DNA of 64,000 nucleotides from Minisyncoccota bacterium (lineage in GTDB: Bacteria > Patescibacteriota > Minisyncoccia > Phycocordibacterales > UBA6065). The notes below the pieces were generated by a model. It did no database searches. It saw nothing but the letters and a program-made list of their open reading frames with translations, and was not told where the DNA came from. Made by a program: the position numbers and the translations under genes. This document shows positions 9,711 to 35,558 of the stretch, piece by piece. Each line of letters begins with the position of its first letter. Within the stretch, counting starts at the first letter, position 1. The DNA is taken from assembly GCA_035546035.1 (NCBI GenBank), contig DASZXC010000008.1, positions 188,265 to 252,264 of the forward strand, given 5' to 3'.

Positions 9711-11042
9711 CTATTCCGCGACAAACGATATCTTCTTGTCCTTGTAGCAGAGCCTGCTCCGCAGATTCGCCAAAAGCTCTCGCTTCTCCGATACGCTTCC
9801 TTCACGCAGGAGGTATTTGGCATACTCTCTCGTATTGATCTCGGTCTCGTCGATGGTCTGCTTTTTGACCGATTTGGTCGCAAGTCTCTGGAGGACGTTG
9901 TATCGCTTGATCTCCTCTTCGAGCTTCATCCTCATGCCGAGTTCGTTTAAGCTCACCTTGTCCATGATCTTGAGGAGCTCGTCTATTAGCTCCTCCTCGC
10001 GGATGTACTTGTTCTTGCAATTTCGGTCTCGCGCTCGGGAACATCCGTAGTATATGTATTTTTGGGACGTACCGTTTTTGAGTAGTTTCCACTTCTCTTC
10101 GGCCGATATACCCGACTGACAGTATCCGCAGGTGAAGAGCTTGGTGAAGGCGAACTCCTTGTTCTCTCGCACGATCTTGTCGCGCTTCAGCTGTTCCTGC
10201 GCCTTGTCGAAGAGGTCTTTGGTGATGATGGGCTCGTGCTTGCCCGTGTACCAGTTGCCGCTATTTCGTGGACGCTCGAAGATGCCGTAATAGAAGGGGT
10301 TTTGGATGATGCGGTATACGCCTGAGAGAGTGAGAGGCTTGTTGCCTCGGGTATAGAAGTTAAGCTCGAAGCGGAGCCAGTTATATATCTTCCGTCCGCT
10401 CCATTGCTCGAAGGCAACCTTTTCATACATCTTCTTTATGATCGGCGCACGGACGGGGTCGATAATGACCTGGCACTTCTTGTCCATGAGCTTTTGATTG
10501 AGGTACCCAAGTGGCGCTGTGCCTGCCCATAATCCCATCTCGGCTCGGGTGCGGAGGCCGCGCTTCACGTTGATGCCTCGGTTGTCGTTTTCAAGCTTTG
10601 CCTGCCCGCAGAGGATCATGAGCATGAACTTGTCGTTCGGGCTATTCGAGAACCTCTGACTGAACGTCCTGATATCCTGAAGCAAGCTCGCATCCATGAG
10701 GTCTACGATGCGGCCGAGGTCGCCTGCGTTTCGAGAAATGCGGTCAGGAGCCCATGTCAGTATTCCATTATACTTCCCAAGCTTGAGTTCCTCGATGATC
10801 TCGTTGAATACGGGCCTCTGGCCAGTCTCCTTGGCCGAGTGCGATTCGCGTTTCATCTCGACGATCTCGAGGCCGTCTCGCTCGGCTAATTGGAGCATCT
10901 CCTTGATCTGACTATCAATCGACAGGATCTGACGCTCCTCGGATTCCGTCGACTTCCTGGCATACAGACAATATTTCACTTTCACGGGGACCGCTACTTT
11001 GGCCAGGGTCCCTAATGGCGCTTGGGCTATATTGTTATTCAT
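9711..11042 (-). CDS. large serine recombinase (phage-type integrase)
   Basis: N-terminal resolvase domain YCLYARKSTESEERQILSIDSQ (catalytic Ser), a recombinase domain and a C-terminal zinc ribbon CGYCQSG...YYGCSRARDRNCKN. Paralog of 28598..29923. Confidence 0.85.
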   Translation of the reverse strand: MNNNIAQAPLGTLAKVAVPVKVKYCLYARKSTESEERQILSIDSQIKEMLQLAERDGLEIVEMKRESHSAKETGQRPVFNEIIEELKLGKYNGILTWAPDRISRNAGDLGRIVDLMDASLLQDIRTFSQRFSNSPNDKFMLMILCGQAKLENDNRGINVKRGLRTRAEMGLWAGTAPLGYLNQKLMDKKCQVIIDPVRAPIIKKMYEKVAFEQWSGRKIYNWLRFELNFYTRGNKPLTLSGVYRIIQNPFYYGIFERPRNSGNWYTGKHEPIITKDLFDKAQEQLKRDKIVRENKEFAFTKLFTCGYCQSGISAEEKWKLLKNGTSQKYIYYGCSRARDRNCKNKYIREEELIDELLKIMDKVSLNELGMRMKLEEEIKRYNVLQRLATKSVKKQTIDETEINTREYAKYLLREGSVSEKRELLANLRSRLCYKDKKISFVAE

Positions 11043-11069
11043 ACATCACAAGGAATGACGCAACGCGCC

Positions 11070-11432
11070 CTAGGAGTCCAGAGCATCCCGAGAGCTAGTT
11101 GTTGGTAACTCGAAGAGATTAAAATCCTCGATTTCTTTCCTGTATTCGTCCATATCGCGCACCACTTTCTTGTATATCTCCGAAACCCGCTTCAGCCTCT
11201 CTTCGCTGGAGACCGAGTTGCTATCAAGGAGAAAATCCACAGCATCGTCGTCGACGAACGTGGCAAGAGAGATATAGCATGCGGCGAGAAAGCTCATGCG
11301 CTCCTTGATGCTTCGCTTAAGGTCGCTTTTCGGCTCGGAGAGGAGCGAGAGCTTATTCAATGTCATGCTCCTTGGCGGTTTGCCGTATCGCATATGTTCT
11401 GTGGCCTTTATAACTGCTTCGATGTCGTCCAC
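11070..11432 (-). CDS. hypothetical protein upstream of the serine recombinase (possible accessory/directionality factor)
   Basis: 120-aa ORF with no recognisable motif. The assignment rests on position only. Confidence 0.3.
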   Translation of the reverse strand: MDDIEAVIKATEHMRYGKPPRSMTLNKLSLLSEPKSDLKRSIKERMSFLAACYISLATFVDDDAVDFLLDSNSVSSEERLKRVSEIYKKVVRDMDEYRKEIEDFNLFELPTTSSRDALDS

Positions 11433-11452
11433 GCATCAAGGAATGACGCCGA

Positions 11453-12139
11453 TTGGGGCGGAAGTCCAGACCTGATTCCGTGTGCTACACTTTTAATGTA
11501 AAGGCAATTGCAGCCAACAAGTCTATGGAATCCTTCTCAAAAGTCATCAACGGAATGCTGGCGATATCTATCGTTCCGTTCATCATGCTCAATGTCTTGG
11601 GAAGCATAGTAAGTACCATTTGGCTTTTGTTTCTCGGCGAATGGCGGCTTGTCGTGATGGGTGTGATCTTCATATTGATCTCGTCGTTTGTCATTTCGAT
11701 ACTCCTCCTTCCAACCATGGGCTTCATGTACCTCATCCTAAAATCGCTTGAGAAAAACAGGAGGGTCTTGGTCGCCATTGTAGGTTGGCTGAATCTCACA
11801 TACACGCATGTGATTGGCCTGGTGTGGACGATAGGAATTTTCATACTGATGTTCAACATCGCTGGAGACGGGAATGTCTTTCCGTATCTGCTCTTCGGAT
11901 ACGGATTAGCGACGGGCCCATACGCGTACATGGCTTCGAAAGAGGATCGAGAAGCGACTGGCTCGCACATGACTGTTTGGCTCTTACAATTTGCATATGC
12001 GCTCCTTTTCCTTTTCTACTACGTCAGCTCGACGCTCATAGCCCTCCCGATCATCCTTATCGTCACTCTCTTGGTCGAGATATGGCTTCTGAAGATTGGT
12101 ATGATCTATCACAAATTGGATACTCAACATGCGCAATAA
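11453..12139 (+). CDS. hypothetical polytopic membrane protein
   Basis: Six or more hydrophobic helices. The true start may be the ATG at about 11525 (MESFSK). Confidence 0.4.
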   Translation: MGRKSRPDSVCYTFNVKAIAANKSMESFSKVINGMLAISIVPFIMLNVLGSIVSTIWLLFLGEWRLVVMGVIFILISSFVISILLLPTMGFMYLILKSLEKNRRVLVAIVGWLNLTYTHVIGLVWTIGIFILMFNIAGDGNVFPYLLFGYGLATGPYAYMASKEDREATGSHMTVWLLQFAYALLFLFYYVSSTLIALPIILIVTLLVEIWLLKIGMIYHKLDTQHAQ

Positions 12140-12433: not shown

Positions 12434-13529
<1,096 letters not shown>

Positions 13530-13880
13530 ATGAACGACCTAGACATTCCCATATTCAAGAAATCCTATAATCTCTACAAAGATTTCTATGCTCTCCGCCT
13601 ATCGGTGCCGAAGCAAGATCGCTATACTCTCTGGCAGAAATGCGAGAGTCTACTCGTTGAAGTGCTCGAAGGCATCCTTTTCGCGAGCCAACAGTCGAAA
13701 TTGGAGAAATTACCGACTTTGGAGAAGACGAGTGTCAAACTGAACTTTCTCCGCGTCTGTATCCGTCTCATGAAGGACATCAAGGCAATCGATTCCAAGA
13801 AGTACATCGTGATCGAGGCGAATCTCGATGAGATCGGAAGAATGCTCGGAGGCTGGATAAAATCCACGAAGGGACTCTAA
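13530..13880 (+). CDS. avd: DGR accessory variability determinant (Avd; four-helix-bundle / 23S-IVS protein family)
   Basis: 116 aa with a C-terminus ANLDEIGRMLGGWIKS that closely resembles the Avd/IVS-protein signature. It is transcribed divergently, back-to-back with the RT (CATATG shared by both start codons). Confidence 0.65.
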   Translation: MNDLDIPIFKKSYNLYKDFYALRLSVPKQDRYTLWQKCESLLVEVLEGILFASQQSKLEKLPTLEKTSVKLNFLRVCIRLMKDIKAIDSKKYIVIEANLDEIGRMLGGWIKSTKGL

Positions 13881-13883
13881 CAG

Positions 13884-13905
13884 AAAACCCACATATGTGG
13901 GTTTT
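13884..13905 (+). terminator. hairpin AAAACCCACATATGTGGGTTTT downstream of avd
   Basis: Perfect palindrome, T-rich on both sides. Confidence 0.5.
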
Positions 13906-13926
13906 CTCGGGATAGAGCTATGACTG

Positions 13927-14042
13927 CCGGGCAGCCGACACGCCGATGTTGCCATTGTGGTTGTCGTCGTTCCAGTTGTTGACGTTGAGACCCTTGGAAT
14001 CGAAGTTGCCGACGTTGACACGATTGCCGTCCGAGTCGAGAT
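13927..14042 (-). repeat. DGR template repeat (TR)
   Basis: 116 bp matching the VR at 14402..14517. Its coding-sense strand is adenine/AAC-rich (encodes ...NVGNFDSKGLNVNNWNDDNHNGNIGVSAAR). It is not part of any intact ORF. Confidence 0.8.
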
Positions 14043-14322
14043 ATTGCCCGTTTCCGTCCATGACACCGAGATTTGAGGTTTACTACCTTTGCAGGTCTAT
14101 ATCCTCTCATCTCTGAATTTTATTCGAGAGTAGCTTTCGTCTGAAAGCACCTCCTCTAGAAACGGGCAAGAAGTTCTCTCTATCCTCAAATCGCGCTCTG
14201 CCGTAATCCATAGACTACTAGCACTCTGGCGACACCAAAAAGGTGAGATATCTCGCGAACTTGAACCGTGATCCAAGCTACATGAGCAAGATGCGGATAT
14301 GATACCAAATTTTTATAAAAAA

Positions 14323-14354
14323 GAGGCTTCGCAAAAAAATTTTCGCGAAGCCTC
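14323..14354 (-). terminator. rho-independent terminator of the DGR target gene (10-bp stem GAGGCTTCGC/GCGAAGCCTC plus U-tract)
   Basis: Perfect stem followed by a T-run on the minus strand, downstream of the stop at 14393. Confidence 0.55.
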
Positions 14355-14392
14355 AAGGATTCAAGAGGGACAAGCCCTCAAGGGATCAAGAA

Positions 14393-15199
14393 TCACTGCT
14401 TCCGGGCAGCCGACACGCCGATGTGGCCATGGTGGAGGCCGTCGCTCCAGTCGCCGACGTTGAGACCCTCGGAATCGAAGCCGCCGACGCGGACACGACC
14501 GCCGCCCGAGTCGAGACTGGAAGTCCGAACGTAGACGTCTTCGAAGAGTCGGACACCACGAACCTCGAAATAGGTCGTGATGAACCAGCTCATCTCGGCG
14601 GCGTTCGGCACAATCTCGACTTTGGACAGGAGCTTGGTCTGCTCCTTCCACGTTTTGTTGGTCGAATTCGAGACGGGCGTCTTCTTGATGGCCATCCATC
14701 CCGACGACGTTTTGTCCTCGCGAGCGAACGTCTCCTTGTCTTCGGCATACCATCCGCCCGACTTCGAGTAGAAGTGGGCTGACTGGATCTCCCGAATATC
14801 GAGTGTCGACAGTGCCGTGGGCGGTGCGGGGATGACGGCGTAGCCGTTCTCCTTGCACCACGTGAGCACTTCTTCCGACGGCAGACTTTCGGCGAGGGCC
14901 GTGATCTGTTCGTCGGTGTAGACGATCCCTTTGCGAGCCTTGGCGACTTCCTCCGGCGTGATGAAATCCTCGCCGAGGATTGACTGTGCCAGTGCGTAGT
15001 CGGGTGCTTTGGCCGAGAAGCGACGGATGCCCTGTGCAAGATACGCGGCGAAGCCGGCATTCTCGTTCAGGCGTTGTGCGCTGTCGTCGTCGAGGTTTGC
15101 TTTGTCATATGCAGACCCGACGGTGGACATGAACTTGAGACCTTTGGGGTCCCGATGCGTAACGGTAACAGACGGGGACAATGGTTTCATTGGCGACAT
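14393..15199 (-). CDS. DGR variable (target) protein with a C-terminal lectin-like VR-encoded tail
   Basis: The C-terminal 40 aa (…GGRVRVGGFDSEGLNVGDWSDGLHHGHIGVSAARKQ) are encoded by the VR. This segment aligns with the TR with 17 mismatches, all at TR adenines. No N-terminal signal peptide is seen; the start is uncertain. Confidence 0.75.
   Translation of the reverse strand: MSPMKPLSPSVTVTHRDPKGLKFMSTVGSAYDKANLDDDSAQRLNENAGFAAYLAQGIRRFSAKAPDYALAQSILGEDFITPEEVAKARKGIVYTDEQITALAESLPSEEVLTWCKENGYAVIPAPPTALSTLDIREIQSAHFYSKSGGWYAEDKETFAREDKTSSGWMAIKKTPVSNSTNKTWKEQTKLLSKVEIVPNAAEMSWFITTYFEVRGVRLFEDVYVRTSSLDSGGGRVRVGGFDSEGLNVGDWSDGLHHGHIGVSAARKQ
14402..14517 (-). repeat. DGR variable repeat (VR) at the 3' end of the target gene
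   Basis: Base-by-base alignment with the TR. The substitutions occur only where the TR has A on the coding strand (plus-strand T changed to G, C or A at 17 sites). Confidence 0.8.
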
Positions 15200-15412: not shown

Positions 15413-15712
15413 TTACATGAAGCCCTCGATTCCGCCTTCTTCCACTTCGCGGAAACGATCTCGAAAGACCTTCATCTGCGCCTTGCCTTCGGGTGTTTTC
15501 AGATGATCCTCGGCCACAATGAATTCCATCGTAGCCTGGGAACAGTCGGGACAGGAGCGCAGGTGAGCGAGGAAGGCCTCCTGCTGTTCTTCGGAGGCGA
15601 GCTCGTTCATTAGGTTAATGTGATCGACCGAATGGAGGCACGGACCTACTGGATTTTTAGGGGAGAAGCAGATTGCCTCAATGAGCTTCTTCTCCATTGA
15701 TTCGGAGAGCAT
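15413..15712 (-). CDS. hypothetical Cys-containing (CPDC) small protein, possible zinc-finger / anti-sigma-like
   Basis: 99 aa with HLRSCPDC and additional Cys/His residues. It is preceded by a conserved palindromic leader and followed by a conserved stem-loop. Confidence 0.35.
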   Translation of the reverse strand: MLSESMEKKLIEAICFSPKNPVGPCLHSVDHINLMNELASEEQQEAFLAHLRSCPDCSQATMEFIVAEDHLKTPEGKAQMKVFRDRFREVEEGGIEGFM

Positions 15713-15718
15713 GGGTTT

Positions 15719-15769
15719 GAAAGAGCGACTCTACAGATCAACAACGTCGTGTTGCGGATCTGATTGAGT
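15719..15769 (-). promoter_or_regulatory. conserved palindromic 5' leader element, copy 1 (core GATC-N17-GATC dyad)
   Basis: About 50 nt that are roughly 80% identical to 16628..16680, immediately upstream of the start of 15413..15712. Confidence 0.3.
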
Positions 15770-15827
15770 AGAGAAGGTTTTTAAGCTTCTCTATTTGGAT
15801 GGCGTTTGCAGGTAACCATCTCATTAC

Positions 15828-16244
15828 CTATGAACGTTCTCCCTCGGCGAATGGCTTGTTAGCCTTTGCCGCTTGGTAGGCCTTACGATAAGGTATGCCT
15901 TTCCACGAGTTATGGAAGAACTGGACAAGCCCTGGTGCGTTGAGTTCGGACTCGACCATATTCTGGTTGAGCCTTCGAACCGACTTCAGGGTAGCCATGA
16001 CACGGCGAGTAGCATCGTATACGTCTCGAGGCGAAATCTTCTCAAGATTCTTGGGGAGCGCCGTAACATTCCGTGCATCCTCGCATACGACAATAGGGAC
16101 TCTCACGAGACGTAGGCTGAAGACAAGTCTTTCGCCTGCATCCACGATTCGGTTCGCTTCCGCCCATGCGGCTAGTTCCTTTTCGATCTCGGCAGCTTTT
16201 TGCTTTATGAGCTCATCTGCCGAAACGGTTGTCGTCGTATTCAT
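15828..16244 (-). CDS. hypothetical protein (translationally coupled to the upstream XRE regulator)
   Basis: 138 aa. Overlaps the XRE gene stop by 4 nt (ATGA-type coupling). Confidence 0.4.
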   Translation of the reverse strand: MNTTTTVSADELIKQKAAEIEKELAAWAEANRIVDAGERLVFSLRLVRVPIVVCEDARNVTALPKNLEKISPRDVYDATRRVMATLKSVRRLNQNMVESELNAPGLVQFFHNSWKGIPYRKAYQAAKANKPFAEGERS

Positions 16245-16621
16245 GCTTGCGGTTGCGTTGAGGGTTGTTGACGACGTTTGAGCAGCTCGCGGATTAGCGA
16301 GATGTTCAAAGGCGCTTTCAGTCCTTCGGCTACCGTAAGGAGGAATTTGAGGTCATCGGCTGTCACCGCGATCTCAATATCCGCCTCGTAGCCGGGAACT
16401 CCGTCCATATCGTAGCCACACATGTTGGCGAGCTCAGTTGCTGGCACTCCATACGCCTGCGCAATGCGGGTAAGTTTAGAGCGCTTGATGCACGTATCGC
16501 CTCTTTCCATGCGGTCGATGGTCGTTCGGTTACAACCAATCTCCATTCCCATCTCCTGGCTTGTGAGGCCAAGAGCAGTCCTTTTTGCGGCAAGGAGCGC
16601 GCCGATTTTCTTTTTGTCCAT
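16241..16621 (-). CDS. XRE-family helix-turn-helix transcriptional regulator
   Basis: N-terminal Cro/C1-type HTH: LTSQEMGMEIGCNRTTIDRMERG. Confidence 0.7.
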   Translation of the reverse strand: MDKKKIGALLAAKRTALGLTSQEMGMEIGCNRTTIDRMERGDTCIKRSKLTRIAQAYGVPATELANMCGYDMDGVPGYEADIEIAVTADDLKFLLTVAEGLKAPLNISLIRELLKRRQQPSTQPQA

Positions 16622-16627
16622 AAAATC

Positions 16628-16680
16628 AAAGAGCTGTGACTCTATAGATCAACGACACCATGTCGCGGATCTAATGGAGT
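16628..16680 (-). promoter_or_regulatory. conserved palindromic 5' leader element, copy 2 (upstream of the XRE regulator; candidate operator)
   Basis: Same motif (GACTCTAnAGATCAAC...GCGGATCT) directly upstream of the XRE HTH gene start at 16621. Confidence 0.3.
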
Positions 16681-16707
16681 GGACGATATTTTATAATCGT
16701 CCATTTG

Positions 16708-16729
16708 GAGAGTATTTAACCAGACTCTC
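16708..16729 (-). repeat. conserved 3' stem-loop motif, copy 2 (GAGAGT-ctggttaaat-ACTCTC)
   Basis: Overlaps the stop of 16732..17187(-). Followed by a second hairpin GGACGATtataaaatATCGTCC (16681-16702). Confidence 0.5.
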
Positions 16730-16731
16730 AA

Positions 16732-17187
16732 TTAACTGAAACGGGAAACGCCCGTCATCGACCGATTTGGCGGCGAAGCGACAGCCTCGATTTCGGCTTG
16801 GTAGCCGAGGCTCGTGAGAGCCCACCGAAGATCCTTTGCGGCATCCGCCACCATCTGGCGCGAATTCTGCTTGAGAAGCTTGGTGTCGATGTGCTGGATC
16901 GTCACCGTCGTGGTCTCGCGCCCGACGCGCACCATGGCCCACACCAGATCGGGTCCTTTGCTGGTCTCACCAAGGACCAGATAGAGATACTCAATGGTGT
17001 CGTCGTCAACGAAGCGATGGCGATTTTCATAGCCCTTCGATTCGATGATGTGGCGAGCGGTCTCGAGCGCCATCCTCCGCTCGTTCCGACGGCGTTTGAT
17101 CGCGCTCAGCCAGAAGCCTCCGAAGAGGGCGACGATGGTGAACGTCCACACACCGAGGATGAGGAGAATTGAAGTCATTGGTTTCAT
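16732..17187 (-). CDS. hypothetical membrane protein
   Basis: Start taken at the internal ATG (MKPMTSILLILGVWTFTIVALFGGFWL), which has one TM helix. The track ORF extends upstream to 17505 through low-complexity sequence. Confidence 0.35.
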   Translation of the reverse strand: MKPMTSILLILGVWTFTIVALFGGFWLSAIKRRRNERRMALETARHIIESKGYENRHRFVDDDTIEYLYLVLGETSKGPDLVWAMVRVGRETTTVTIQHIDTKLLKQNSRQMVADAAKDLRWALTSLGYQAEIEAVASPPNRSMTGVSRFS

Positions 17188-17408
17188 AAGTAAGTTGAGT
17201 TTAGTGAGGAAATCTACGATTCGCTTGGCAACGAGCCAGCAAGTCAATCGCTTCTTTCCTTCCAAACTCAACAAGTCAAAGAACATTCTGTTTCGTCCTT
17301 TTGGACTCGTCAGTCGGGATACGCATCCCGATACAGAGACCGGATTGGAGTCTCCGGTGTTTTTGATTCTGTTGCCAAGATGGTTTTCTCCATCTCCGTC
17401 ACATCGTC

Positions 17409-17663
17409 TCAGGGCAATCCCTGGACGATGGCAACTCTGGTTCCCTTTGAAAGAGGGAAACTCAGCGGGCTCCCGTAAACCCCGATAACCCCGTTGCTGC
17501 GCCACTCCGTGAGGCCGTCATGTTCTTCAGACACATGAGGCAGATCCAGATCCGCCTTGATGGCCTCGTTCGAGTCCGCAACACGTGATTTCTTGGGGAG
17601 GGAACCCTTAAAGTCCTTTTGGGACTTGAATGACTTTTTCGTAACGATGATTTTGGTGGTCAT
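17409..17663 (-). CDS. hypothetical small protein
   Basis: 84-aa ORF in the same orientation as its neighbours, with no motif. Confidence 0.25.
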   Translation of the reverse strand: MTTKIIVTKKSFKSQKDFKGSLPKKSRVADSNEAIKADLDLPHVSEEHDGLTEWRSNGVIGVYGSPLSFPLSKGTRVAIVQGLP

Positions 17664-17798
17664 AGGAATAAAAGAGTAAGTATTTATTCCCTTATTCCTA
17701 TGACCGTCTTAAATTCAAAGAGCTGTACTTTATGAATCCGCGATATCGCTATCGTGAACTCAATGAAGTGGGGAATCTTGTTTAAGGATTCCCCAATT

Positions 17799-27234: not shown

Positions 27235-27950
27235 ACGGTAGTGTGACGCGGTACGTTTTCACACCAGAAGAGATAGCAGAAATCGGGCAAAGGTATGGCC
27301 TTGAGCTCATCACACCAAGTGTTTGGAAAGGAACGCTCAACATCTATGCCTCGTATAACGGCCTGCCGCTGAAGGATAAGTTCGAGATAAAAATCGGGAT
27401 ACCTTTTAACTATCCGAATTCGACTCCAGTTATGTCGGAAGTGGGAGGCCGTACTGCGACCATAATTAAAAAGTATAAGATCAAGGATCCGCGCGATCTC
27501 CACTTCAACATCGGTAGCGAGACGGCCTGTCTCTGTGTGCGCCAAGAGGAAAAGAAAAAGTTTCCGCCAGGCTCGTCACTATCGGTCTTCATAGAGAATC
27601 TCGTGATTCCGTATCTTTACGGCCTGAGTCATTTCGATATGTATCGAAAATGGCCATGGGGAGAAAGGTCGCATGGTGTCCTCGGCATGCTTGAGTTTTA
27701 TGGAGAAAATCCCGACAAACAGACAGAGGAAAGTATGAGGGAAATTACCGCCGCTTTACGACCAGAGAAAAATTGGAAGGAATACGATAAACAGCTACGA
27801 AATCCTCGTCCGCATGGTCGGTGTGTTTGTGGTAAAGATAAATCATTTGAGAAATGTCATTTCGCGGCTTTTCAGGGTGTAGTCTGCTTCAACGAAGACC
27901 TCAAACGTCTAGGCATCACCACCGCAAAACTGTTTCAGTCACGACCCTAA
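27222..27950 (+). CDS. E2 ubiquitin-conjugating-enzyme-like protein (type II-short CBASS Cap2-like, E2 only)
   Basis: UBC-like HPN-type motif HFNIGSETACLCV with a candidate catalytic Cys. Overlaps the CD-NTase gene by 13 nt. Confidence 0.45.
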   Translation: MGVVDGSVTRYVFTPEEIAEIGQRYGLELITPSVWKGTLNIYASYNGLPLKDKFEIKIGIPFNYPNSTPVMSEVGGRTATIIKKYKIKDPRDLHFNIGSETACLCVRQEEKKKFPPGSSLSVFIENLVIPYLYGLSHFDMYRKWPWGERSHGVLGMLEFYGENPDKQTEESMREITAALRPEKNWKEYDKQLRNPRPHGRCVCGKDKSFEKCHFAAFQGVVCFNEDLKRLGITTAKLFQSRP

Positions 27951-28273: not shown

Positions 28274-28543
28274 ACCCCTAATATATACCCTATGATAAAG
28301 CTGTCAACAGAGCCAATGTTACAGTCCAAAAAGGCCTTTATGCTGTAACATTTGTAACATTCCTGTGAATGAGACATGATCCGAACTAGCCCTTTCCGTG
28401 TCTCATTTGTCTCATTCACAAAATTCGACCCCGACCCACGTACCTCATTTCCGCCTGCCGAAAAATGCTATTATGCCCTTACGGGGTCTTACCTCATGGG
28501 TACTTAACCCGACTACACCGCATAGTGAATAAGGTATCGGACA

Positions 28544-28559
28544 AACCCACGTACCTAAA
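28544..28559 (+). repeat. 16-bp direct repeat AACCCACGTACCTAAA (left copy; right copy at 35374..35389)
   Basis: Exact 16-bp match. The two copies bracket the second serine-recombinase module. Confidence 0.5.
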
Positions 28560-28570
28560 ATTAGGCAAAC

Positions 28571-28596
28571 AAAAAATCCCAAATATGGGATTTTTT
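28571..28596. terminator. bidirectional terminator AAAAAATCCCAaataTGGGATTTTTT
   Basis: Stem flanked by an A-run and a T-run, immediately after the stop of recombinase 2. Confidence 0.55.
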
Positions 28597-28597
28597 G

Positions 28598-29923
28598 TTA
28601 CTGAGCGAGAGCCAGGGTTTTGTCTTTGTAAATTATTCTCGACTTCAAGCTACCCAATAATTCTCGTTTCTCTATAATCGAACCCTCTTTCAGAATATAT
28701 TTTGCATAATTTTTAATATCAGTCTCGGTATTATTTTTGACTTTATCTTGGCTTCCTAAGACCGATCTTTGGAAGATGTTGAATCGGCTGATTTCTTCCT
28801 CGAGTTTTCGTCTCATACCAAGTTCGTTTATATCAAGAAGATCTATTATCTTCAGGAGCCCGGAAATTAGCTCCTCCTCTCGTATATAAGTATTCTTGCA
28901 ATTGCGATCTCGCGCTCTGCTGCAACCATAGTAGACATAGCGATGAGAACCGCCATTTTTACGCTCCTTCCATTTCTCTTCGGCAGACACTCCTGAACCG
29001 CAATGACCGCAGCTGAATAATTTTGTGAAAGCGAACTCTTTGTTTTCACGGACAATCTTATCTCTGGTCAGCTGAGCCTGCGCTTTATCGAAGAGCTCTT
29101 TTGATATCAGGGGAGCGTGTTTGCCCGTATACCAATTGCCGCTGTTCTTCGGACGCTCGAAGACTCCGTAATAGAAAGGGTTGTCGAGTGTGCGATAGAT
29201 GCCGCTCAGGGTGAACGGCTTGTTGCCTCGGGTGTGGAAGTTTAATTCAAATTTCAGCCAGTTGTAGAGCTTCATCCCGCTCCAGTTTTCATACGCGACT
29301 TTTTCGAACATCTGTTTGATGATTGGCGCTCTGATCGGATCAGGTACAACCTGACACTTTTTATCCATCATGTACTGGTTGAGATATCCGAGGGGAGCTA
29401 AGCCTGCCCATAATCCCATCTCCGCTCGAGTTCTGAGTCCGCGCTTCACATTCAGACCTCGATTATCGTTCTCAAGCTTTGCCTGTGATCCCAAGATCAT
29501 GAGGAGGAATTTGTCACTCGGACTATTCGTGAATCGTTGCCCGAACGTTTGGATTTCTTTGAGTTTTCCTGAATCGAGGAGATCGACAACCTTTCCCAGG
29601 TCTCCTGCGTTCCTCGAGATTCGATCTGGAGCCCATGTCAGGATGCTGTTGAATTTCCCTTTACCGATATCATCGATAATCTCATTGAAGATCGGCCGTT
29701 GACCTGTCTCTTTGGCGGAATGCGACTCACGCTTTATTTCTACGACTTCGAGATTATCGCGCGAGGCGAGCTCCAGCATCTCTTTAATCTGCGAATCTAT
29801 GGAAAGCACCTGTCTTTCCTCGGATTCGGTGCTTTTACGCGCGTAAAGGCAGTATTTTGCCTTTATAGGGGCTTGTAAGGGCTTGATAATGACTCCGGCT
29901 GGGGCTTGGGCTATATTGCTCAT
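28598..29923 (-). CDS. large serine recombinase (second copy)
   Basis: YCLYARKSTESEERQVLSIDSQ and a zinc ribbon CGHCGSG...YYGCSRARDRNCKN. About 75% aa identity to 9711..11042. Confidence 0.85.
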   Translation of the reverse strand: MSNIAQAPAGVIIKPLQAPIKAKYCLYARKSTESEERQVLSIDSQIKEMLELASRDNLEVVEIKRESHSAKETGQRPIFNEIIDDIGKGKFNSILTWAPDRISRNAGDLGKVVDLLDSGKLKEIQTFGQRFTNSPSDKFLLMILGSQAKLENDNRGLNVKRGLRTRAEMGLWAGLAPLGYLNQYMMDKKCQVVPDPIRAPIIKQMFEKVAYENWSGMKLYNWLKFELNFHTRGNKPFTLSGIYRTLDNPFYYGVFERPKNSGNWYTGKHAPLISKELFDKAQAQLTRDKIVRENKEFAFTKLFSCGHCGSGVSAEEKWKERKNGGSHRYVYYGCSRARDRNCKNTYIREEELISGLLKIIDLLDINELGMRRKLEEEISRFNIFQRSVLGSQDKVKNNTETDIKNYAKYILKEGSIIEKRELLGSLKSRIIYKDKTLALAQ

Positions 29924-30156: not shown

Positions 30157-31257
30157 TTGCATGGTGAATTCGATTCCAATGTAAATTATTACGATAGAAG
30201 TGGTAGATCGGAACATAAGGCAGAGAGAATAGGTAAAAAATATCAGTGGATCGCCTATCATGAGTTTATGGCGCTTGTGTCTGACCATTTTGAGTTCAGT
30301 GGCAGACGCTGGGGAGCAACCTCTGAACACTACAAAGGTCCGTGGACGCCTCGGATAAGAGATATTGATCCTTCTTTCATCATGCAAAATGATCGAACTA
30401 ATCAGAAAGTTGCAACGTTTGAAAATTGGAAGAGCAAATCTGGCAAGTACAATGCTTGGAATTTGTCACTAGACGACAAAAGTTGGTTGGAGGTAAAAGA
30501 TGATCTACTCGATCCTAAAAATATAATAGAAATCGCAGATGATGCGGGTAATAAGTGGCTAACTCTACAAGGAATATTCGTTTGGCAGGCAGAAACTGCT
30601 CCGGAGCATAAAAAATACGATATACCGACGCGAGAGGTCTTCTATATCCTCAAAAGTTTCATTATCAGAAAAAGTGACTATGAAAAAACACTATCCTGGC
30701 TTAATGCCAAGGGCTTCGGCAACTGGTTGCCAGAGTCTCACCAGTTCTACGAGACATTTATTGGTGAATACCCTAATTCTTTTGCCTTCGATGATTTAAG
30801 AGGCGACTATAATATTTGGAGGAAAGCAAATGATAAGCTTGATGTACCGCTCGTCGTTACTGACGATGCTTATCTAAATGAATTCACGCTCGACTGTTCG
30901 CATGAAGGGGCTGTATCTGTAAGAATGCCCTCAAAGTTTATAGTAAATGAGATGCAATTGGTGCAGAAAAATCTCGACGGTATTTTTTCTGACAAAGATA
31001 ATAAGATCATTTCCTATACGACTAACGTTTTCAAGGAATCTTTTCCGTCTGCGCTTCTAATAGATAAAAAGGCGCTCTTAAAGTTTCTTGATGATGCCGG
31101 ATACAAAATATTTTGGACGCTTCTCGGAGAAAAACAGATAATAGGAGGATCGTTAGCGGGAAGAGATTTCAAAGGGAGGTTAGATATTACGGGTACGTAT
31201 GGTTTTCCTGACGACTCCAAATTAAAAGGATCAATGGATACTAGATTTACCTCTTAA
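30157..31257 (+). CDS. hypothetical protein encoded in a low-GC segment (possibly the frameshifted C-terminal part of a larger gene)
   Basis: 366-aa ORF. A 67-aa ORF (29981..30184) overlaps its 5' end in another frame. GC is visibly lower than the surroundings. Confidence 0.35.
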   Translation: MHGEFDSNVNYYDRSGRSEHKAERIGKKYQWIAYHEFMALVSDHFEFSGRRWGATSEHYKGPWTPRIRDIDPSFIMQNDRTNQKVATFENWKSKSGKYNAWNLSLDDKSWLEVKDDLLDPKNIIEIADDAGNKWLTLQGIFVWQAETAPEHKKYDIPTREVFYILKSFIIRKSDYEKTLSWLNAKGFGNWLPESHQFYETFIGEYPNSFAFDDLRGDYNIWRKANDKLDVPLVVTDDAYLNEFTLDCSHEGAVSVRMPSKFIVNEMQLVQKNLDGIFSDKDNKIISYTTNVFKESFPSALLIDKKALLKFLDDAGYKIFWTLLGEKQIIGGSLAGRDFKGRLDITGTYGFPDDSKLKGSMDTRFTS

Positions 31258-31388
31258 ACACTAAGTCTTTGGAGGTATTACACAATCTTTTGTATCTAAG
31301 CTAAGGTACTGACTGGTATCTCTTTTTGGGATATCATGTAGTTACAACTGAATAAAAAAGTAGCCTAAACCCTCGAGAAATCGGCGGC

Positions 31389-31946
31389 ATGGCGAAGGAA
31401 ATCCGATTAAGTATAAAAAGGCCCCCATCAGGGCTACTTAATCGGTCATATCAGGAAACTGGTATGGATAGCCTTCGGGCTATCACCTGGTGTGGGGCTT
31501 TTTGTATTCAAAGAGCCTTCCGGGATTACCAGTTAGCAGGCTCTTATATGTTTTTCTTTATTTGGTTAGGGTTGTCTATGTTGGTGGGCGCGTATGCGAG
31601 CAACAGAAAAACTGCGGGAGGATTCTTCCTTGGATTTTTTGTCTCCATGGTTTTTTCTCCTCTTGTTGGTTTTGTGGCGGTAGCAGTCTCTAAGCCTAGT
31701 CAGAGCAGGGTCGAGGCGGGAATGAAGAAATGTATCCATTGCGCCGAGCTTGTTAAGAAGGAGGCGATCAAGTGCAGGTACTGCGGGGCGGATCTTCCAG
31801 TTCAAGAGGAATCTAAGGAGATTGTTGAACCTAAGACAGAGAAGAGTCCGGAGGAGAAGAAATCAGATAGAATCGCGGCCATTTCAGTGACGGGGTTTAT
31901 ACTGGTTCTTATTCTCATCTTCTATCTTCTGACGAAGTTCCGCTAG
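31389..31946 (+). CDS. hypothetical membrane protein with a zinc-ribbon (CxxC...CxxC)
   Basis: TM helices plus CIHCAELVKKEAIKCRYCG, and a C-terminal TM anchor. Confidence 0.35.
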   Translation: MAKEIRLSIKRPPSGLLNRSYQETGMDSLRAITWCGAFCIQRAFRDYQLAGSYMFFFIWLGLSMLVGAYASNRKTAGGFFLGFFVSMVFSPLVGFVAVAVSKPSQSRVEAGMKKCIHCAELVKKEAIKCRYCGADLPVQEESKEIVEPKTEKSPEEKKSDRIAAISVTGFILVLILIFYLLTKFR

Positions 31947-32603
31947 CTTGGCGTCTCGGTAGGGTTTGCTCGCAATGAGTTCTTGAAGATCCTTCTCTCG
32001 CTGTTCCATAAGAGCCTTCTGGATATTCAGTGAGAGGGTGTTTATATCTACATGACCTTGCATTGCATTGTGGAAGTCGAGCTTCTCTAGTAATTCTTTC
32101 TCACGAGGTGTTGTCCCATAGTCATTCGGCATGTATTTCTGCATGAACCATCGGGTTATCATCTTGTCGCCCTCGATCAGAAAGTTACGTACGTTCTCGG
32201 TTGCTATCGTAGTGGTTTCTTTTGCGGGATCTACTGTTTGATGGGGTTTTACTTCTTTCGCCTTCATATATCTTGGGTCGTTATGACTGAGCCAGAACGA
32301 TATGGCGGGCATCTTTCTCTCTCGGATAAGGGAGATGATTTGCGACTCGCACATATCGTTCATGAAGCGTCGGCTGTATTCGCCAGCCTCATCTGCCATC
32401 TTCTTGAACCTCTTGTCGGAGTGATACCAACGGTAAAAGGTCGCACGGGATATACCCGCTTTCTTGCACGCGACCTCTATTACGGGTGTCTCGCGGAGCT
32501 TCTCGAGAAGGAAAGTCTTCTCTTTTCTCTGGCGAGCCGCGATAGAGGCTCTGCGATGCTTTATTGAATCTTCGTGGCCTTGAGTCCCGTTAGATTCTCC
32601 CAT
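31884..32603 (-). CDS. terminase small subunit-like HTH protein (paralog of 21066..21572)
   Basis: HTH PVIEVACKKAGISRATFYRWYHSDKRF. Confidence 0.45.
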   Translation of the reverse strand: MGESNGTQGHEDSIKHRRASIAARQRKEKTFLLEKLRETPVIEVACKKAGISRATFYRWYHSDKRFKKMADEAGEYSRRFMNDMCESQIISLIRERKMPAISFWLSHNDPRYMKAKEVKPHQTVDPAKETTTIATENVRNFLIEGDKMITRWFMQKYMPNDYGTTPREKELLEKLDFHNAMQGHVDINTLSLNIQKALMEQREKDLQELIASKPYRDAKLAELRQKIEDENKNQYKPRH

Positions 32604-33895
32604 CGTTTTTTAATTACTTCTGCGTAGACGGGCGACTTTTCCATGAGGAAGCATCGGCGCTTGAGTCGTGTCGAGGCTATAAGCGTCGATCCGCTTCCTC
32701 CGAAGGGCTCGAGGACGAGCTGGCCACGCTTCGTGAGAACTTTGATGTACGGGATCAGTATCTCGACAGGCTTCGTGCCGAAGATGATGCTCTGGCCGGA
32801 CGATTTCTCGTCCGAAGCAACGCATTCGATGAAGTCGGTCGGGCAGTACTTGTTGCCTTTACCGTACGCCTCCCATTGAGGCTTGCCTTGGATGGCGAAG
32901 AGGGCGGTCTGATACTCGTTCTCGAGAAGCGAATCGTCCTCTGGCTCGAGATTGAGTCCAGAATGCTCCTCGCTCGTCCCGACCATGGCTATGTCGTGCT
33001 TGGAGAAGAACTTGAGCTTGCCCGCATAGCCCTGATTCCTGTTGGGGAGGTGCCAGACGAGCATGTTCCTGACCTTCCAATGCTTGGCTAGCTCGGACCA
33101 TATGACGGGAATGTTCTTCCAGTTCTCGTAGACGATGATCGAGAAGTTCTCGGCCTGTACTTTAGCGACGTTTCCCATCCAGAGCTCGGTGAAATCGTCG
33201 GGAATGGACTCGGTCTCGAGGTACCTACGGTTCTTCTTGGTTCCGAAGCCCGTTGTGGCCTCGCCGTTCTTTCCTTTGCCGTGCAGGTAGTCGAGGATGT
33301 ACGGTGGATCGGTCATGACCATGTCTATCTTCTCGTCTCCGCAGAGCTTCAGCATGTCGGCCTCGATAGTCGAGTCGCCGCACATAAGCTTTGAGCCGTC
33401 CAGATCGTAGACGTCGCCCTTCTTTATCTCGATGTTGTTTATATCGAGCTTCTCCAGCTCCTTCTGTAGGTCGAAGATCTCTTCTTTCTCGTCCTCACCG
33501 AAGATATTGTCGATCTCCTCTGACGAGAAGCCGACGTCTTGAAGGAAGATCTCGTCGAAATGCTCTTGAAGGAGTTCGAAGTCGAATTCGCCGACAGCTT
33601 TGTTCAAGCGGAGGGAGATCTCTCGCTCCTTGTCGAGATCGGTAATGTTAACGGAGACGACGGGGACGGTCTCAAAGCCCAGCTCCTTCATCATCTCCCA
33701 TTTGAATACGCCGCCAAGGATGACGTTCTCTCGGCTTGGGGCATTGTTGCAGAGCAGTGGATTGAGGCATCCGAACTTCCTCAGCGACTCCTTGAGCTGT
33801 TCGGCTACCTCGGTCGAATGCTTGCGGACGTAATACTCAGGCACTTTCAAGACGCTCGATGGAACATGGTCTACCTTCATGGTTTCTATAGACAT
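32561..33895 (-). CDS. ParB-like nuclease domain fused to a DNA methyltransferase (second copy)
   Basis: ParB-like N-terminus, then MVMTDPPYILDY and a C-terminal EPFGGSGSTLIAS. Confidence 0.75.
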   Translation of the reverse strand: MSIETMKVDHVPSSVLKVPEYYVRKHSTEVAEQLKESLRKFGCLNPLLCNNAPSRENVILGGVFKWEMMKELGFETVPVVSVNITDLDKEREISLRLNKAVGEFDFELLQEHFDEIFLQDVGFSSEEIDNIFGEDEKEEIFDLQKELEKLDINNIEIKKGDVYDLDGSKLMCGDSTIEADMLKLCGDEKIDMVMTDPPYILDYLHGKGKNGEATTGFGTKKNRRYLETESIPDDFTELWMGNVAKVQAENFSIIVYENWKNIPVIWSELAKHWKVRNMLVWHLPNRNQGYAGKLKFFSKHDIAMVGTSEEHSGLNLEPEDDSLLENEYQTALFAIQGKPQWEAYGKGNKYCPTDFIECVASDEKSSGQSIIFGTKPVEILIPYIKVLTKRGQLVLEPFGGSGSTLIASTRLKRRCFLMEKSPVYAEVIKKRWENLTGLKATKIQ

Positions 33896-34085
33896 ATTTT
33901 TACTGGCTTAACCGACGTGATAAGAGGTCATATGTGTTTGATGAATCCTTTTACAATTTAGGTGGTACAGCTAAGGTGAGACCCCTCTCGATTTCGGCGT
34001 ATGCGCATATGCCGATCCTTAACCTCGCATATTAAGTATAGCGGGGAGGGGTCGAATTTGTTCTTTCCCTCGGAAGGAGTAGAGT

Positions 34086-34535
34086 GTGTGGGCAAATAAG
34101 GCCCATGGCACCTACGTGTGTCTCATTTGTCTCATTTACCATCCCGTGAACGCAACCAGCACTGATTTCGCAAAGACTTTTCCAAGAGACGTCGCCAAAA
34201 TGATGATCGATGCTTTTGCGTCGGGTACTAAAATGGCCGCCGAGATGATCTGGGGAGTGGTACGTGAACTTCTTGCTCAACACTGGCTCGCTGTAATCGG
34301 TATCGTTCTCTTGATTTTGTTCATGGCTTTTGCTGAATACCTCTTCACAGGCCGCTGGAAGATGCTTGGTCAGGTCCTCTATAGGATTATCAACTGGGGA
34401 TCGTTGCTAGCCATAGTATCTATATTCGGTCTCGGCATATTCACGAGCGATTGGGCCGATATCTATCTCGCTCTCGTGGGTATAGCTAGCTATTTATTCG
34501 TGGGGTGGCTGTTGCGCCGCGTTGGTATTCGATAA
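34086..34535 (+). CDS. hypothetical membrane protein
   Basis: Three or four TM helices. The start is uncertain. Confidence 0.3.
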   Translation: MWANKAHGTYVCLICLIYHPVNATSTDFAKTFPRDVAKMMIDAFASGTKMAAEMIWGVVRELLAQHWLAVIGIVLLILFMAFAEYLFTGRWKMLGQVLYRIINWGSLLAIVSIFGLGIFTSDWADIYLALVGIASYLFVGWLLRRVGIR

Positions 34536-35388
34536 ATTTATGCCTCCAGAAAAACCCAAACGCAAAAGCCTCATAACCCAGTTCTACGTTCAGGCGAACG
34601 ACAGGACTTTTCACCAGCTCGTGAAGCTCATGGTCGATTTGGTCGACGGCGAGATGAACGAGATCAAGCTTATTTTAAAATATTCAGGCCTGAAGTATGG
34701 CCCGAGTCCGATGGTTGATACCGTTACCGGAAAGAAGTTTGGGCAAGATGGGCCAAGAATGCCTCTTCAAGGGGATCAGATCGAGATCTCATATCACAAA
34801 GATGGGGCTATTACATACAAAGACCCCGCGAAACAGGATGGTCATAAGCACATAAGCAAGCGCGCCTACATTCGACCTTTCAAAAAGATTAAGGAGCCGC
34901 AGATGTTTTTTAGTATCACAGGCTGGCAAATAAATTATCCGCCCGCTAAGGTACCGAAGCCTGGTAATGGGCGTGAAGAGATTGTGTTTGGACTCGGCCC
35001 TTCCTTTGCGCCAAGCGATAACATCAACTGTGTGATCTACATATCTAATGGATATGCGGCCTTCAATATCCCTGAGTGGAACGCTCATTTGTTTCCTGAT
35101 GCGCCAGAACATATTCAATTTCCGGTTGAGGGAACTAATTTGATCCTGACCTTCTTTTTCTGGAGGTTCCAAGGAAATTCGACAGAGGCCACATTCTCTA
35201 TTCGTACCGATACTTGGAAGGATAGGCTGAAGCGTCTTTATTTTGGGATTAAGCTGGGCCGCGCCTACCCGATGTTTCGAGATACGCTCATCAAGCTTCG
35301 CTACAAGATAGTTCCCAAAAAGATTCCGCCTGGCACCGTGCACCAATCTCAGGAATATAAACCACAGGACCCCAACCCACGTACCTAA
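34522..35388 (+). CDS. hypothetical protein (its stop codon lies inside the right-hand 16-bp direct repeat)
   Basis: 288-aa ORF with no motif recognised. Confidence 0.35.
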   Translation: MVFDKFMPPEKPKRKSLITQFYVQANDRTFHQLVKLMVDLVDGEMNEIKLILKYSGLKYGPSPMVDTVTGKKFGQDGPRMPLQGDQIEISYHKDGAITYKDPAKQDGHKHISKRAYIRPFKKIKEPQMFFSITGWQINYPPAKVPKPGNGREEIVFGLGPSFAPSDNINCVIYISNGYAAFNIPEWNAHLFPDAPEHIQFPVEGTNLILTFFFWRFQGNSTEATFSIRTDTWKDRLKRLYFGIKLGRAYPMFRDTLIKLRYKIVPKKIPPGTVHQSQEYKPQDPNPRT

Positions 35389-35389
35389 A
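35374..35389 (+). repeat. 16-bp direct repeat AACCCACGTACCTAAA (right copy)
   Basis: Identical to 28544..28559. Confidence 0.5.
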
Positions 35390-35558
35390 TTGCAGAGGCG
35401 AAATGGTGCTAAAATACCCTTACAACGGTTGGGCCTACATTTACTTAACCCGCCATCACCGCAACAAGGAAGATATCCGATGAGTCCCTCATGTCGAAAA
35501 TGGCATTCGCTGTAAAGAAAAAACACCGCGTAAGCGGTGTTTCGCCTTTAAAAAAGAC

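Follow-up and report, generated by a model that had tools for sequence, protein, structure and literature searches.

The window analysed here is a 64,000-nucleotide (nt) stretch of contig DASZXC010000008.1 from a Minisyncoccota bacterium. It carries two genes for large serine recombinases (LSRs) that point the same way, each followed at higher coordinates by a gene for a helix-turn-helix (HTH) protein resembling a small terminase (TerS-like) and by a gene for a ParB-methyltransferase (ParB-MTase) fusion. An original prediction for this DNA had described the two modules either as successive integrations of related elements or as a phage plus a parasitic satellite. We find two bounded elements of one family, with a conserved core, a variable and mostly anti-phage cargo, and no detected virion gene. 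Element A (module 1) occupies approximately positions 3951-28540 (24.6 kb) and element B (module 2) approximately 28541-35490 (6.9 kb), and they lie head to tail beside a tRNA-Ser(GCT) gene. The features that define the two elements are listed here with their strands.

3861..3950 (+): tRNA-Ser(GCT), the host integration target, with its 3' end towards the island (ARAGORN, Rfam tRNA)
3951..4050 (+): LSR-side junction of element A (nhmmer match 3935-4027, E 2.4e-23), made up of TTGACAA..TATCGG (3964-3969), a small hairpin, GCGACCCGAGTGC (3997-4009) and a terminator-like hairpin (4023-4050)
9711..11042 (-): LSR1 (Pfam Resolvase, Recombinase and Zn_ribbon_recom)
18816..18952 (+): LOOT RNA of element A (Rfam RF03000, 71.3 bits), on the strand opposite to the LSR and terminase operon
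19679..21205 (-): large terminase, TerL (phrog_38, E 7.5e-79); the Logan gene call starts at 21127
21066..21572 (-): TerS-like HTH protein 1, whose gene overlaps the TerL start (PHROG small-terminase families, E 9.5e-10 to 3e-7)
21569..22342 (-): DNA MTase (Pfam N6_N4_Mtase, E 7.7e-31)
22302..23576 (-): ParB-MTase fusion 1 (Pfam N6_N4_Mtase, E 1.6e-29)
28427..28540 (+): distal terminal motif of element A, also the tRNA-like target side for element B (nhmmer E 2.3e-21)
28541..28597 (+): LSR-side junction of element B, with the 16-bp repeat AACCCACGTACCTAAA (28544-28559) and the LSR2 terminator hairpin (28571-28596)
28598..29923 (-): LSR2 (Pfam Resolvase, Recombinase and Zn_ribbon_recom)
31362..31484 (+): LOOT RNA of element B (Rfam RF03000, 80.7 bits), on the strand opposite to the LSR and terminase genes
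31884..32603 (-): TerS-like HTH protein 2 (PHROG small terminase, E 1.5e-6, HTH part only; weak Pfam matches to HTH_Tnp_1_2 and Sf6_terminase)
32561..33895 (-): ParB-MTase fusion 2 (Pfam ParB_N and N6_N4_Mtase)
35368..35493 (+): distal terminal motif of element B and right end of the island (nhmmer match 35368-35477, E 1.3e-18)

Both recombinases match PF00239, PF07508 and PF13408 above the curated cut-offs, which is the architecture of serine integrases. GTDB species genomes hold 273 LSR relatives at 71-96% identity, and the best 80 were examined as genome loci, each a stretch comprising the LSR with 10-kb flanks, so that counts of TerL apply to these stretches. Another 34 relatives come from the IMG/VR viral collection, with LSRs at 44-78% identity. 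The related loci number approximately 115, nearly all from the candidate phyla radiation (CPR), and carry labels in the style of L003.

The ends of the elements were located with two nhmmer models, one for the junction (built from 10 other loci and the window copy) and one for the distal motif (built from 12 other loci, with window sequences excluded). The distal motif comprises GACCCCGACCCACGTACCT, a decayed tRNA-Ser-like stretch ending in CCGC, and then ..TATCGG, and its model matches exactly two places in the window (28427-28540 and 35368-35477). The tRNA-Ser gene lies 5.7 kb downstream of LSR1 in the orientation usual for the family and is followed by approximately 80 nt of conserved sequence (3951-4027). 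Because element sequence is present on both sides of the intervening 5.7-kb segment, which carries GNAT, Shedu, IS256 and APH genes, we assign this segment to element A as cargo. On the LSR2 side the junction model yields a weak match (28508-28556), and here the distal tRNA-like end of element A with its TATCGG flank runs directly into the LSR2 terminator, so that this end stands to LSR2 as the real tRNA-Ser stands to the LSR in single-copy loci. An exact 16-mer repeat brackets module 2 (28544-28559 and 35374-35389), for which we estimate a chance expectation of approximately 0.002, and the exact 12-mer ACCCACGTACCT occurs three times in the 64 kb, at 28434, 28545 and 35375. The GC content is 0.50 in element A, 0.46 in element B and 0.55-0.57 in the host flanks, with the rise from 0.46 to 0.57 falling just past position 35490.

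The left border can be placed more closely by comparison with a metagenome contig (L127) that represents an empty site. A search for such sites by way of the ABC permease gene beside the tRNA gave 80 loci, among which tRNA-Ser synteny is kept in L127 only. This contig is syntenic with the left flank of the window through the genes for an HhH-GPD protein, an ABC ATPase, the ABC permease and tRNA-Ser(GCT), at 71% nucleotide identity, and its tRNA is 86% identical to that of the window, with the 5' half and the 3' end identical. Similarity ends at position 3966, and no junction motif follows the L127 tRNA. The left border therefore lies at approximately 3951-3970, the tRNA body belonging to the host and the junction to the element. 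We had also considered an element that carries a whole tRNA and inserts at its 5' end, which is ruled out by the identity of the 5' half and 3' end of the tRNA at the empty site. The right flank of L127 is unrelated to that of the window, and thus synteny does not set the right border. Aligning the intact tRNA and its flank to candidate ends in search of attachment-site copies gave scores within the shuffle null.

Two candidate crossover sites emerge from these sequences, namely a TATCGG..GACC|C palindrome, with GACC|C repeats as an alternative, and the 16-bp repeat at 28544/35374. The palindrome is found in an imperfect form, TATCGGCAyGACC|CGAGTGCC, at sites that look unoccupied (the L004 and L007 distal sites). 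In the junction of element A, positions 3970-4009 resemble the imperfect palindrome TATCGGCATGACC|CGAGTGCC interrupted by an insert of approximately 26 nt, and the same is seen in L021, L022, L046, L050 and L007. The insert folds into a small hairpin that shows compensatory changes from locus to locus; a GACC repeat flanks it, and the unoccupied-looking sites lack it. It may be a scar left by an earlier element, or else belong to the P' arm. As for the order of events, element B may have entered the tRNA-like decoy at the end of element A, or a later arrival of element A at the real tRNA may have pushed element B outward; both fit the arrangement.

The three gene pairs, their positions and their shared orientation are as the original prediction had them. 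LSR1 and LSR2 share 319 of 440 residues (73%, close to the predicted 75% or so), and their genes are 70.5% identical across 1066 nt, to which nucleotide similarity between the modules is confined. The TerS-like proteins are 49% identical over their N-terminal 92 amino acids (aa; E 4e-31), and the ParB-MTases are 26% identical over their full length (E 3e-30). Pfam detects ParB_N in ParB-MTase 2 alone, and ParB-MTase 1 aligns with copy 2 across this region. The extra MTase of module 1 (21569-22342) resembles the C-terminal half of ParB-MTase 2; apart from this likeness, BLASTN and TBLASTX comparisons of 9-28.4 kb with 28.4-36.2 kb revealed nothing shared beyond the gene pairs. Similarity does not end there, as the original prediction had allowed that it might, since three non-coding features are also common to both modules: the LOOT RNA, the LSR-side junction and the tRNA-like distal motif of approximately 110 nt.

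An arrangement of this kind could in principle arise within a single element, by an internal duplication of the recombinase-terminase-methylase segment that later diverged, and the preserved order and orientation of the three gene pairs are what such a duplication would leave. We consider this explanation effectively refuted. Nucleotide similarity is limited to the LSR genes, at 70%, and each module possesses its own pair of end motifs. Moreover, the ParB-MTases, only 26% identical to each other, are of two sub-types, each with relatives elsewhere at 62-72% identity. Among the 80 foreign LSRs, 76 are nearer to LSR1 than LSR2 is, and 54 are nearer to LSR2 than LSR1 is. In another genome (L003) the LSR matches LSR1 at 96% identity, and the best foreign relatives of LSR2 (L029 and L057) are 78% identical to it. 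Because each LSR is closer to foreign recombinases than to the other LSR of the window, we conclude that two separate integrations took place, rather than a duplication. The predicted succession of related elements is thus borne out by these comparisons, by the LSR, LSR-side junction and distal motif that each module has of its own, and by the occurrence of the same bounded architecture elsewhere in CPR, both as single copies and in arrays.

Most of the approximately 115 loci, from genomes and IMG/VR alike, share one synteny. With the LSR on the plus strand, a locus opens with a divergent LexA-like repressor gene (in some), followed by ParB-MTase, a second MTase (in some), the TerS-like gene, TerL (in some) and variable DNA; it then continues with an ORF (open reading frame) for a protein of 120 aa (in some), the LSR, 0-9 kb of variable DNA, the conserved junction and, on the opposite strand, tRNA-Ser. 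In 71 of the 80 genome loci the LSR has the junction, with a tRNA-Ser 3' end, on its downstream side, and the adjoining tRNA-Ser genes have the anticodons GCT, TGA, GGA and CGA. The distal motif is found upstream of the ParB operon in L004, L007, L010, L013, L022, L030, L032, L040, L051, L071, L073 and L074. Thirteen loci, of 3-15 kb, are bounded by both motifs. When the ORFs of these 13 and of elements A and B were clustered, LSR was present in 15 of 15 elements, ParB-MTase or MTase in 12 and the TerS-like protein in 11, with the remaining genes variable (the 120-aa ORF in 6 and TerL in 4). Relatives of ParB-MTase 2 at 59-72% identity occupy the same position in more than 20 loci, and L006 and L007 have relatives of the MTase and ParB-MTase 1 of element A in the same position at 62% identity. 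Of the best 80 LSR relatives, 63 come from metagenome-assembled genomes (MAGs) with CPR names, including Saccharibacteria, Paceibacteria, Nomurabacteria, Magasanikbacteria and Uhrbacteria.

TerL, which is present in 21 of the 34 IMG/VR relatives, always has a TerS-like gene as its partner, arranged as in phages and often with the gene ends overlapping. Counting all loci, it abuts the LSR in at least 13, forming a cassette of approximately 5 kb (ParB-MTase, TerS, TerL, LSR), and the closest TerL relatives in IMG/VR all reside within this same cassette. Neither the LSR nor TerL exceeds 28% identity to any phage among the 50,697 records of INPHARED. Two small human-faecal scaffolds, unannotated, were matched at 26-27% identity.

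Three loci (L018, L024 and L032) contain arrays of three or four junction or distal motifs, and two LSR-family genes are found per locus in L082, L091/L092 and L103/L105. L082 also includes a very small bounded unit (9555-12523, 3 kb) with little besides the LSR. This unit and the motif arrays suggest repeated integration and decay at tRNA-Ser. The IMG/VR contig L096 (12,396 nt) begins and ends with 438-nt stretches that are 93% identical to each other and fall in the TerS-TerL region of an LSR cassette. Such a contig would represent either an element in circular or concatemeric form, put together in assembly from two strains, or a tandem pair of related elements.

The LOOT RNA is another recurring feature of the family. 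Both window copies exceed the RF03000 gathering score of 46.4 bits. With a separate custom covariance model, LOOT is detected in 29 of the 80 genome loci, in every case inside the element and antisense to the LSR, and every match lies upstream of the LSR except for one weak second match. Rfam's own model confirms it in seven of eight related loci. Promoter-like sequences precede both window copies: TGACT-17-TATCAT 23 nt upstream in element A and CTGACT-17-TATCAT 24 nt upstream in element B. They belong to a conserved block (18756-18815 and 31302-31361 in the window) that is seen in the 29 loci, and that can be viewed as TGACT-17-TATCAT or as a small hairpin with compensatory changes overlapping the -10 element. 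The RNA itself may begin further upstream than the Rfam model does. An ORF opens 60-75 nt past the LOOT 3' end in most loci. What this downstream gene encodes varies, with 8 of the 29 cases giving a membrane protein of the OB-fold, tRNA_anti-like kind. LOOT therefore resembles a leader at the 5' side of a cargo slot more than an independent small RNA. In the literature on LOOT, on CPR prophages with serine recombinases and on tRNA integration, we found no description of this family and no link between LOOT and a mobile element. The family thus supplies a genomic context for an orphan motif, which sits inside elements, antisense to the packaging operon and at a fixed distance before variable cargo.

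The remaining features of element A are mostly cargo and small regulators, assigned with Pfam, PHROGs and, for defence genes, PADLOC profiles.

4069..9662 (mixed strands): cargo between the junction and LSR1 (Pfam, PADLOC), comprising the next five lines
4069..5091 (+): GNAT (Pfam)
5098..6294 (+): Shedu SduA (PADLOC, E 3.8e-151)
6327..6938 (+) and 6942..7481 (-): ORFs with no assigned function
7480..8613 (+): IS256/Mutator transposase (Pfam)
8691..9662 (-): APH-family kinase (Pfam)
11070..11432 (-): 120-aa ORF upstream of LSR1, with no Pfam or PHROG match
12434..15199 (-): cargo consisting of a diversity-generating retroelement (DGR), with reverse transcriptase (RT), bAvd, template repeat (TR) and target gene with variable repeat (VR)
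12434..13529 (-): DGR RT (Pfam RVT_1), split at a (GA)19 tract (12940-12977)
13530..13880 (+): bAvd (Pfam)
13924..14041: TR
14393..15199 (-): DGR target gene, holding the VR (14399-14516)
15413..18488 (-): small regulators and other ORFs, namely zf-HC2 (15413-15712), 15828-16244, HTH_3 (16241-16621), 16732-17505 and 17820-18488
19013..19678 (+): OB-fold (tRNA_anti-like) protein (Pfam PF12869, E 2.6e-21), downstream of LOOT and convergent with TerL
23725..25193 (mixed strands): switch-like region, with a 257-aa ORF heading the ParB operon (23725-24498, -) and an S24 repressor (24546-25193, +)
25212..27950 (+): short-form type II CBASS (cyclic oligonucleotide-based antiphage signalling system), with SAVED-HNH effector (25212-26339), CD-NTase (26341-27234) and E2-like protein (27222-27950)

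The slot between LSR and junction holds 0-9 kb in other loci and is filled there by a DGR (L004, L042) or by other variable DNA. A copy of the IS256/Mutator gene, 82% identical at the nucleotide level, is also found near the 96%-identical LSR of L003, and the DNA between the two genes differs. In 13 of the 80 genome loci a homologue of the 120-aa ORF immediately precedes the LSR, and our guess is that it codes for a recombination directionality factor or a regulator. The LexA/CI-like repressor (Pfam Peptidase_S24 and LexA_DNA_bind) is divergent from the ParB operon, a layout also present in L030, L074, L099, L114, L206 and L211. The CBASS operon is complete in its short form, with PADLOC E-values of 5e-130 (effector), 1e-67 (cyclase) and 7e-33 (E2) and Pfam matches to SAVED and SMODS.

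The DGR is recognised by its repeats, TR and VR being 85% identical with 17 of the 19 core mismatches at TR adenines. Its RT frame is not intact, owing to a shift at the (GA)19 tract, which encodes RERERE. Both of the closest DGR relatives, from CPR MAGs, share this tract, at 14 and 10 units, and are likewise out of frame (L004 near 13552 and L042 near 13754). In more remote DGR RTs the tract is missing and the frame is intact. In the Logan assembly of the source sample, contigs are broken at 12864 and near 14359. The split could reflect either phase variation by repeat slippage or a recurrent assembly error. The bAvd and RT genes are divergent with zero bases between their start codons (13529/13530), and since divergent Avd and RT genes are also seen in L004, L009, L012, L021, L042, L054 and L064, this is the normal layout of the DGR clade.

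Element B is much smaller, its end motifs enclosing 6.8-6.9 kb, in agreement with the size of about 6.8 kb given originally for module 2. In addition to the core it contains the following.

30157..31257 (+): Avs2 STAND remnant (PADLOC, E 2.3e-97, profile positions 1133-1497 of 1504)
31578..31946 (+): Zn-ribbon membrane protein (Pfam Zn_ribbon_3; phrog_8436, E 4e-15; Logan gene call)
34086..34535 and 34522..35388 (+): membrane protein and 288-aa protein, divergent from the ParB operon

The 366-aa Avs2 ORF, near the start of LSR2, corresponds to the last 365 residues of a protein of approximately 1500 aa, that is, to its C-terminal quarter, and DNA must therefore have been deleted inside element B. 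The description of module 2 as reduced fits this loss. Avs2 senses the large terminase of phages, which makes it a curious cargo for a terminase-related element. The Zn-ribbon ORF lies downstream of LOOT, is open from 31389, and overlaps TerS2 at its 3' end. No Pfam, PHROG or PADLOC match was obtained for the ORFs at 34086-34535 and 34522-35388, and no TerL or divergent repressor gene was found among the scanned ORFs of element B. TerL, DGR and CBASS are thus restricted to module 1, as had been predicted, and element B appears to be a member of the family that was reduced by deletion and has neither TerL nor a protein repressor.

Outside the elements, GC content falls to 0.41-0.46 immediately after a tRNA-Met(CAT) gene (61342-61416) and stays low from 61342 to 64000. 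A check of this stretch (61.3-64 kb) for a further island revealed neither an integrase nor a Pfam-recognisable gene in the part that lies within the window; a weak match to the distal motif (E 0.1) is present at 62929-62979. Separate from the elements, a host ORF of 1555 aa (54194-58861, +) has a C-terminal peptidoglycan-binding domain and repeats of approximately 290 nt (57531-57819 and 58128-58413) that are 76% identical.

The alternative that module 1 is a phage and module 2 its satellite is not supported. Among the ORFs of at least 80 aa in elements A and B that were scanned with Pfam or PHROGs, none matches a portal, capsid, tail or lysis family or is of portal size; the four ORFs scanned in the 15413-18488 stretch have no PHROG match and none of those in the stretch is portal-sized. 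The closest relatives of the module 1 TerL all belong to the same capsid-less cassette. Large ORFs tested in the large relatives L088, L110, L206 and L210 likewise match no portal, capsid or tail family, and belong instead to type I restriction-modification (R-M; L088) or to MTase/helicase pairs resembling R-M (L110, L206, L210). Because module 1 possesses TerS and TerL without virion families, we do not consider it a phage, and by their gene content both modules therefore seem to be the same kind of small element.

How secure the terminase assignments are matters for what these elements might do. By its full-length profile match, TerL is bona fide. The TerS identity is moderately supported, by the PHROG matches (E 1e-9 to 1e-6) and by an AF2 model of TerS1 that finds a phBC6A51-type homeodomain/small-terminase fold in BFVD (E 4.5e-5); in the PDB, the fold match to Sf6 TerS reaches only E~1, and searches of the PDB with the TerS1 and TerS2 sequences returned nothing significant.

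The reading we favour, and regard as somewhat better than an even bet, is that the window holds two separately acquired members of one family of small CPR integrative elements, in tandem at tRNA-Ser(GCT), that spread as phage satellites. The LSR would insert the circular element some tens of nucleotides downstream of tRNA-Ser, near the recurring TATCGG..GACC|C site, and the next element would land at the tRNA-like end of the one already in place, or at the restored tRNA junction, giving rise to arrays. In element A the LexA/CI-like repressor would keep the packaging operon silent. On induction, the element's own TerS, together with TerL in element A, would package its DNA into the capsids of a helper phage in the same host. 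We take spread as phage satellites to be the most likely lifestyle of these elements.

Several observations weigh against this interpretation. Neither the contigs nor the Logan assembly of the source sample contains direct signs of excision, circular forms or packaging: the Logan assembly has the integrated form only, and no terminal direct repeats, which would signal circularity, occur in 35 whole-contig loci. To our knowledge no helper phage is known, and the Pfam and PHROG scans of elements A and B detected no replication families. TerL is present in a minority of the genome loci, and the TerS-like HTH proteins, given their weak profile and fold matches, could instead be excisionases or regulators. 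The crossover candidates differ in position by 20-110 nt, and element B, with its truncated gene, may no longer be mobile. Finally, CPR phages might have structural proteins so divergent that Pfam and PHROGs miss them, although neither element has a portal-sized ORF.

Some of these same points would be expected of integrative defence islands that move without phage capsids or hardly at all, in which the LSR handles integration and excision while ParB-MTase, TerS and TerL act in DNA processing during uptake or transfer, in protection by methylation, or as a decoy or sensor in defence. The cargo, which is mainly Shedu, CBASS, Avs2, DGR and R-M systems, suits such islands well, as do the weak PDB support for TerS, the failure of the Pfam and PHROG scans to find a helper phage, replication gene or capsid-remodelling gene, and the lack of TerL within the stretches examined at most genome loci. 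However, TerL is full-length, matches phage large terminases strongly and is paired with the TerS-like gene in phage order; 34 relatives are in a viral collection; and we know of no function of terminases outside capsid packaging. We therefore rate this explanation as unlikely, and yet as the foremost of the rivals. Still more improbable in our view, and next in order ahead of in-situ duplication, is that both modules are decayed temperate phages at the same tRNA-Ser whose structural genes were deleted. In favour of decay are the Avs2 gene of element B, clearly cut to its last 365 aa, the out-of-frame DGR RT of element A and its IS256-family transposase; in addition, prophages typically carry genes such as TerS/TerL, ParB-MTase, a LexA-like repressor and an LSR. 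Against this, no intact version with structural genes was found among the tested ORFs of the approximately 115 loci, the core ORFs of the window are full length, and the nearest TerL relatives all share the one cassette. The cassette with TerL abutting the LSR is, moreover, kept across LSRs that are only 44-60% identical, which favours a stable design over random deletions that happened repeatedly.

Among described systems, the closest in function would be satellites of the PICI/SaPI type (phage-inducible chromosomal islands and Staphylococcus aureus pathogenicity islands), the PLE (PICI-like elements) of Vibrio cholerae and the tycheposons of Prochlorococcus, none of which has the defining gene set of this family. 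PICI and SaPI are small integrated elements without virion genes, with their own small terminase, a divergent repressor and frequent anti-phage cargo, and they occur in tandem at preferred sites. The elements described here resemble them in size (approximately 7-25 kb), in lacking virion genes, in having their own TerS-like gene, anti-phage cargo and tandem arrangement and, in element A only, a divergent putative repressor. They differ in using an LSR where PICI and SaPI have a tyrosine integrase, in yielding no Pfam or PHROG match to a primase, a replicase or genes for capsid-size redirection, in that many members carry TerL, in the presence of ParB-MTase and LOOT, and in their CPR hosts; their dependence on a helper is a prediction.

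PLE is a satellite that integrates by an LSR and lacks a full set of virion genes, as the present elements do. It has no such terminase cassette, and its target site and host range are different; the likeness noted is in LSR use only, and no search for PLE genes was made. Tycheposons combine a tyrosine recombinase with cargo, lie next to tRNA genes and form tandem arrays in which degenerate attachment sites and tRNA remnants build up islands, and some carry satellite-like modules. The position of cargo elements beside tRNA, the arrays and the tRNA remnants are shared; the tyrosine recombinase and the other core genes set tycheposons apart, as does the absence of LOOT and of a ParB-MTase/TerS/TerL cassette.

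Phages with serine integrases (phiC31, Bxb1, A118, TP901-1, SPbeta) have the same three-domain recombinase, and late operons of phages typically begin with the order ParB-MTase, TerS, TerL. Unlike these phages, the elements have no head, tail or lysis family among the tested ORFs, and nothing in INPHARED exceeds 28% identity to their LSR or TerL. Of the genes that would make up a complete prophage, a large terminase is present in element A only, and portal, capsid, tail and lysis genes were found among the scanned ORFs of neither. P4 combines a tyrosine integrase with a primase and capsid-size factors, lacks terminase genes, contains defence hotspots and uses the CI RNA as an immunity factor. 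Its hotspots of defence genes within a satellite are mirrored here, and the CI RNA offers a possible analogy for LOOT, for which any regulatory role is speculation.

Tandem integration at a tRNA gene is ordinary; of interest are the family, its reach across CPR and its link to LOOT. A large share of bacterial diversity falls within CPR, whose members have genomes of approximately 1 Mb and whose mobile elements and interactions with phages are barely known. A bolder proposal, which we advance tentatively and would not yet bet on, is that these are the first recognised phage satellites of CPR: phylum-wide, integrating by LSR, targeting tRNA-Ser, as small as 5-7 kb, equipped with their own terminases and with LOOT as a regulatory or immunity leader, and shuttling defence genes. 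In the window that defence cargo is Shedu, DGR and CBASS in element A and a truncated Avs2 in element B. Such shuttling among distant CPR lineages, if true, would explain why LSRs are 71-80% identical across CPR classes.

The compact and diverse serine integrases, with their predicted target at the flank of tRNA-Ser, are candidates for genome-engineering tools. For the biology of their hosts, the family is apparently both widespread among CPR and undescribed. The presence of one family in hundreds of CPR species, with recombinases of such similarity in different classes, points to frequent gene flow within the radiation, and the family may be a main vehicle of defence systems in genomes that are mostly without CRISPR.

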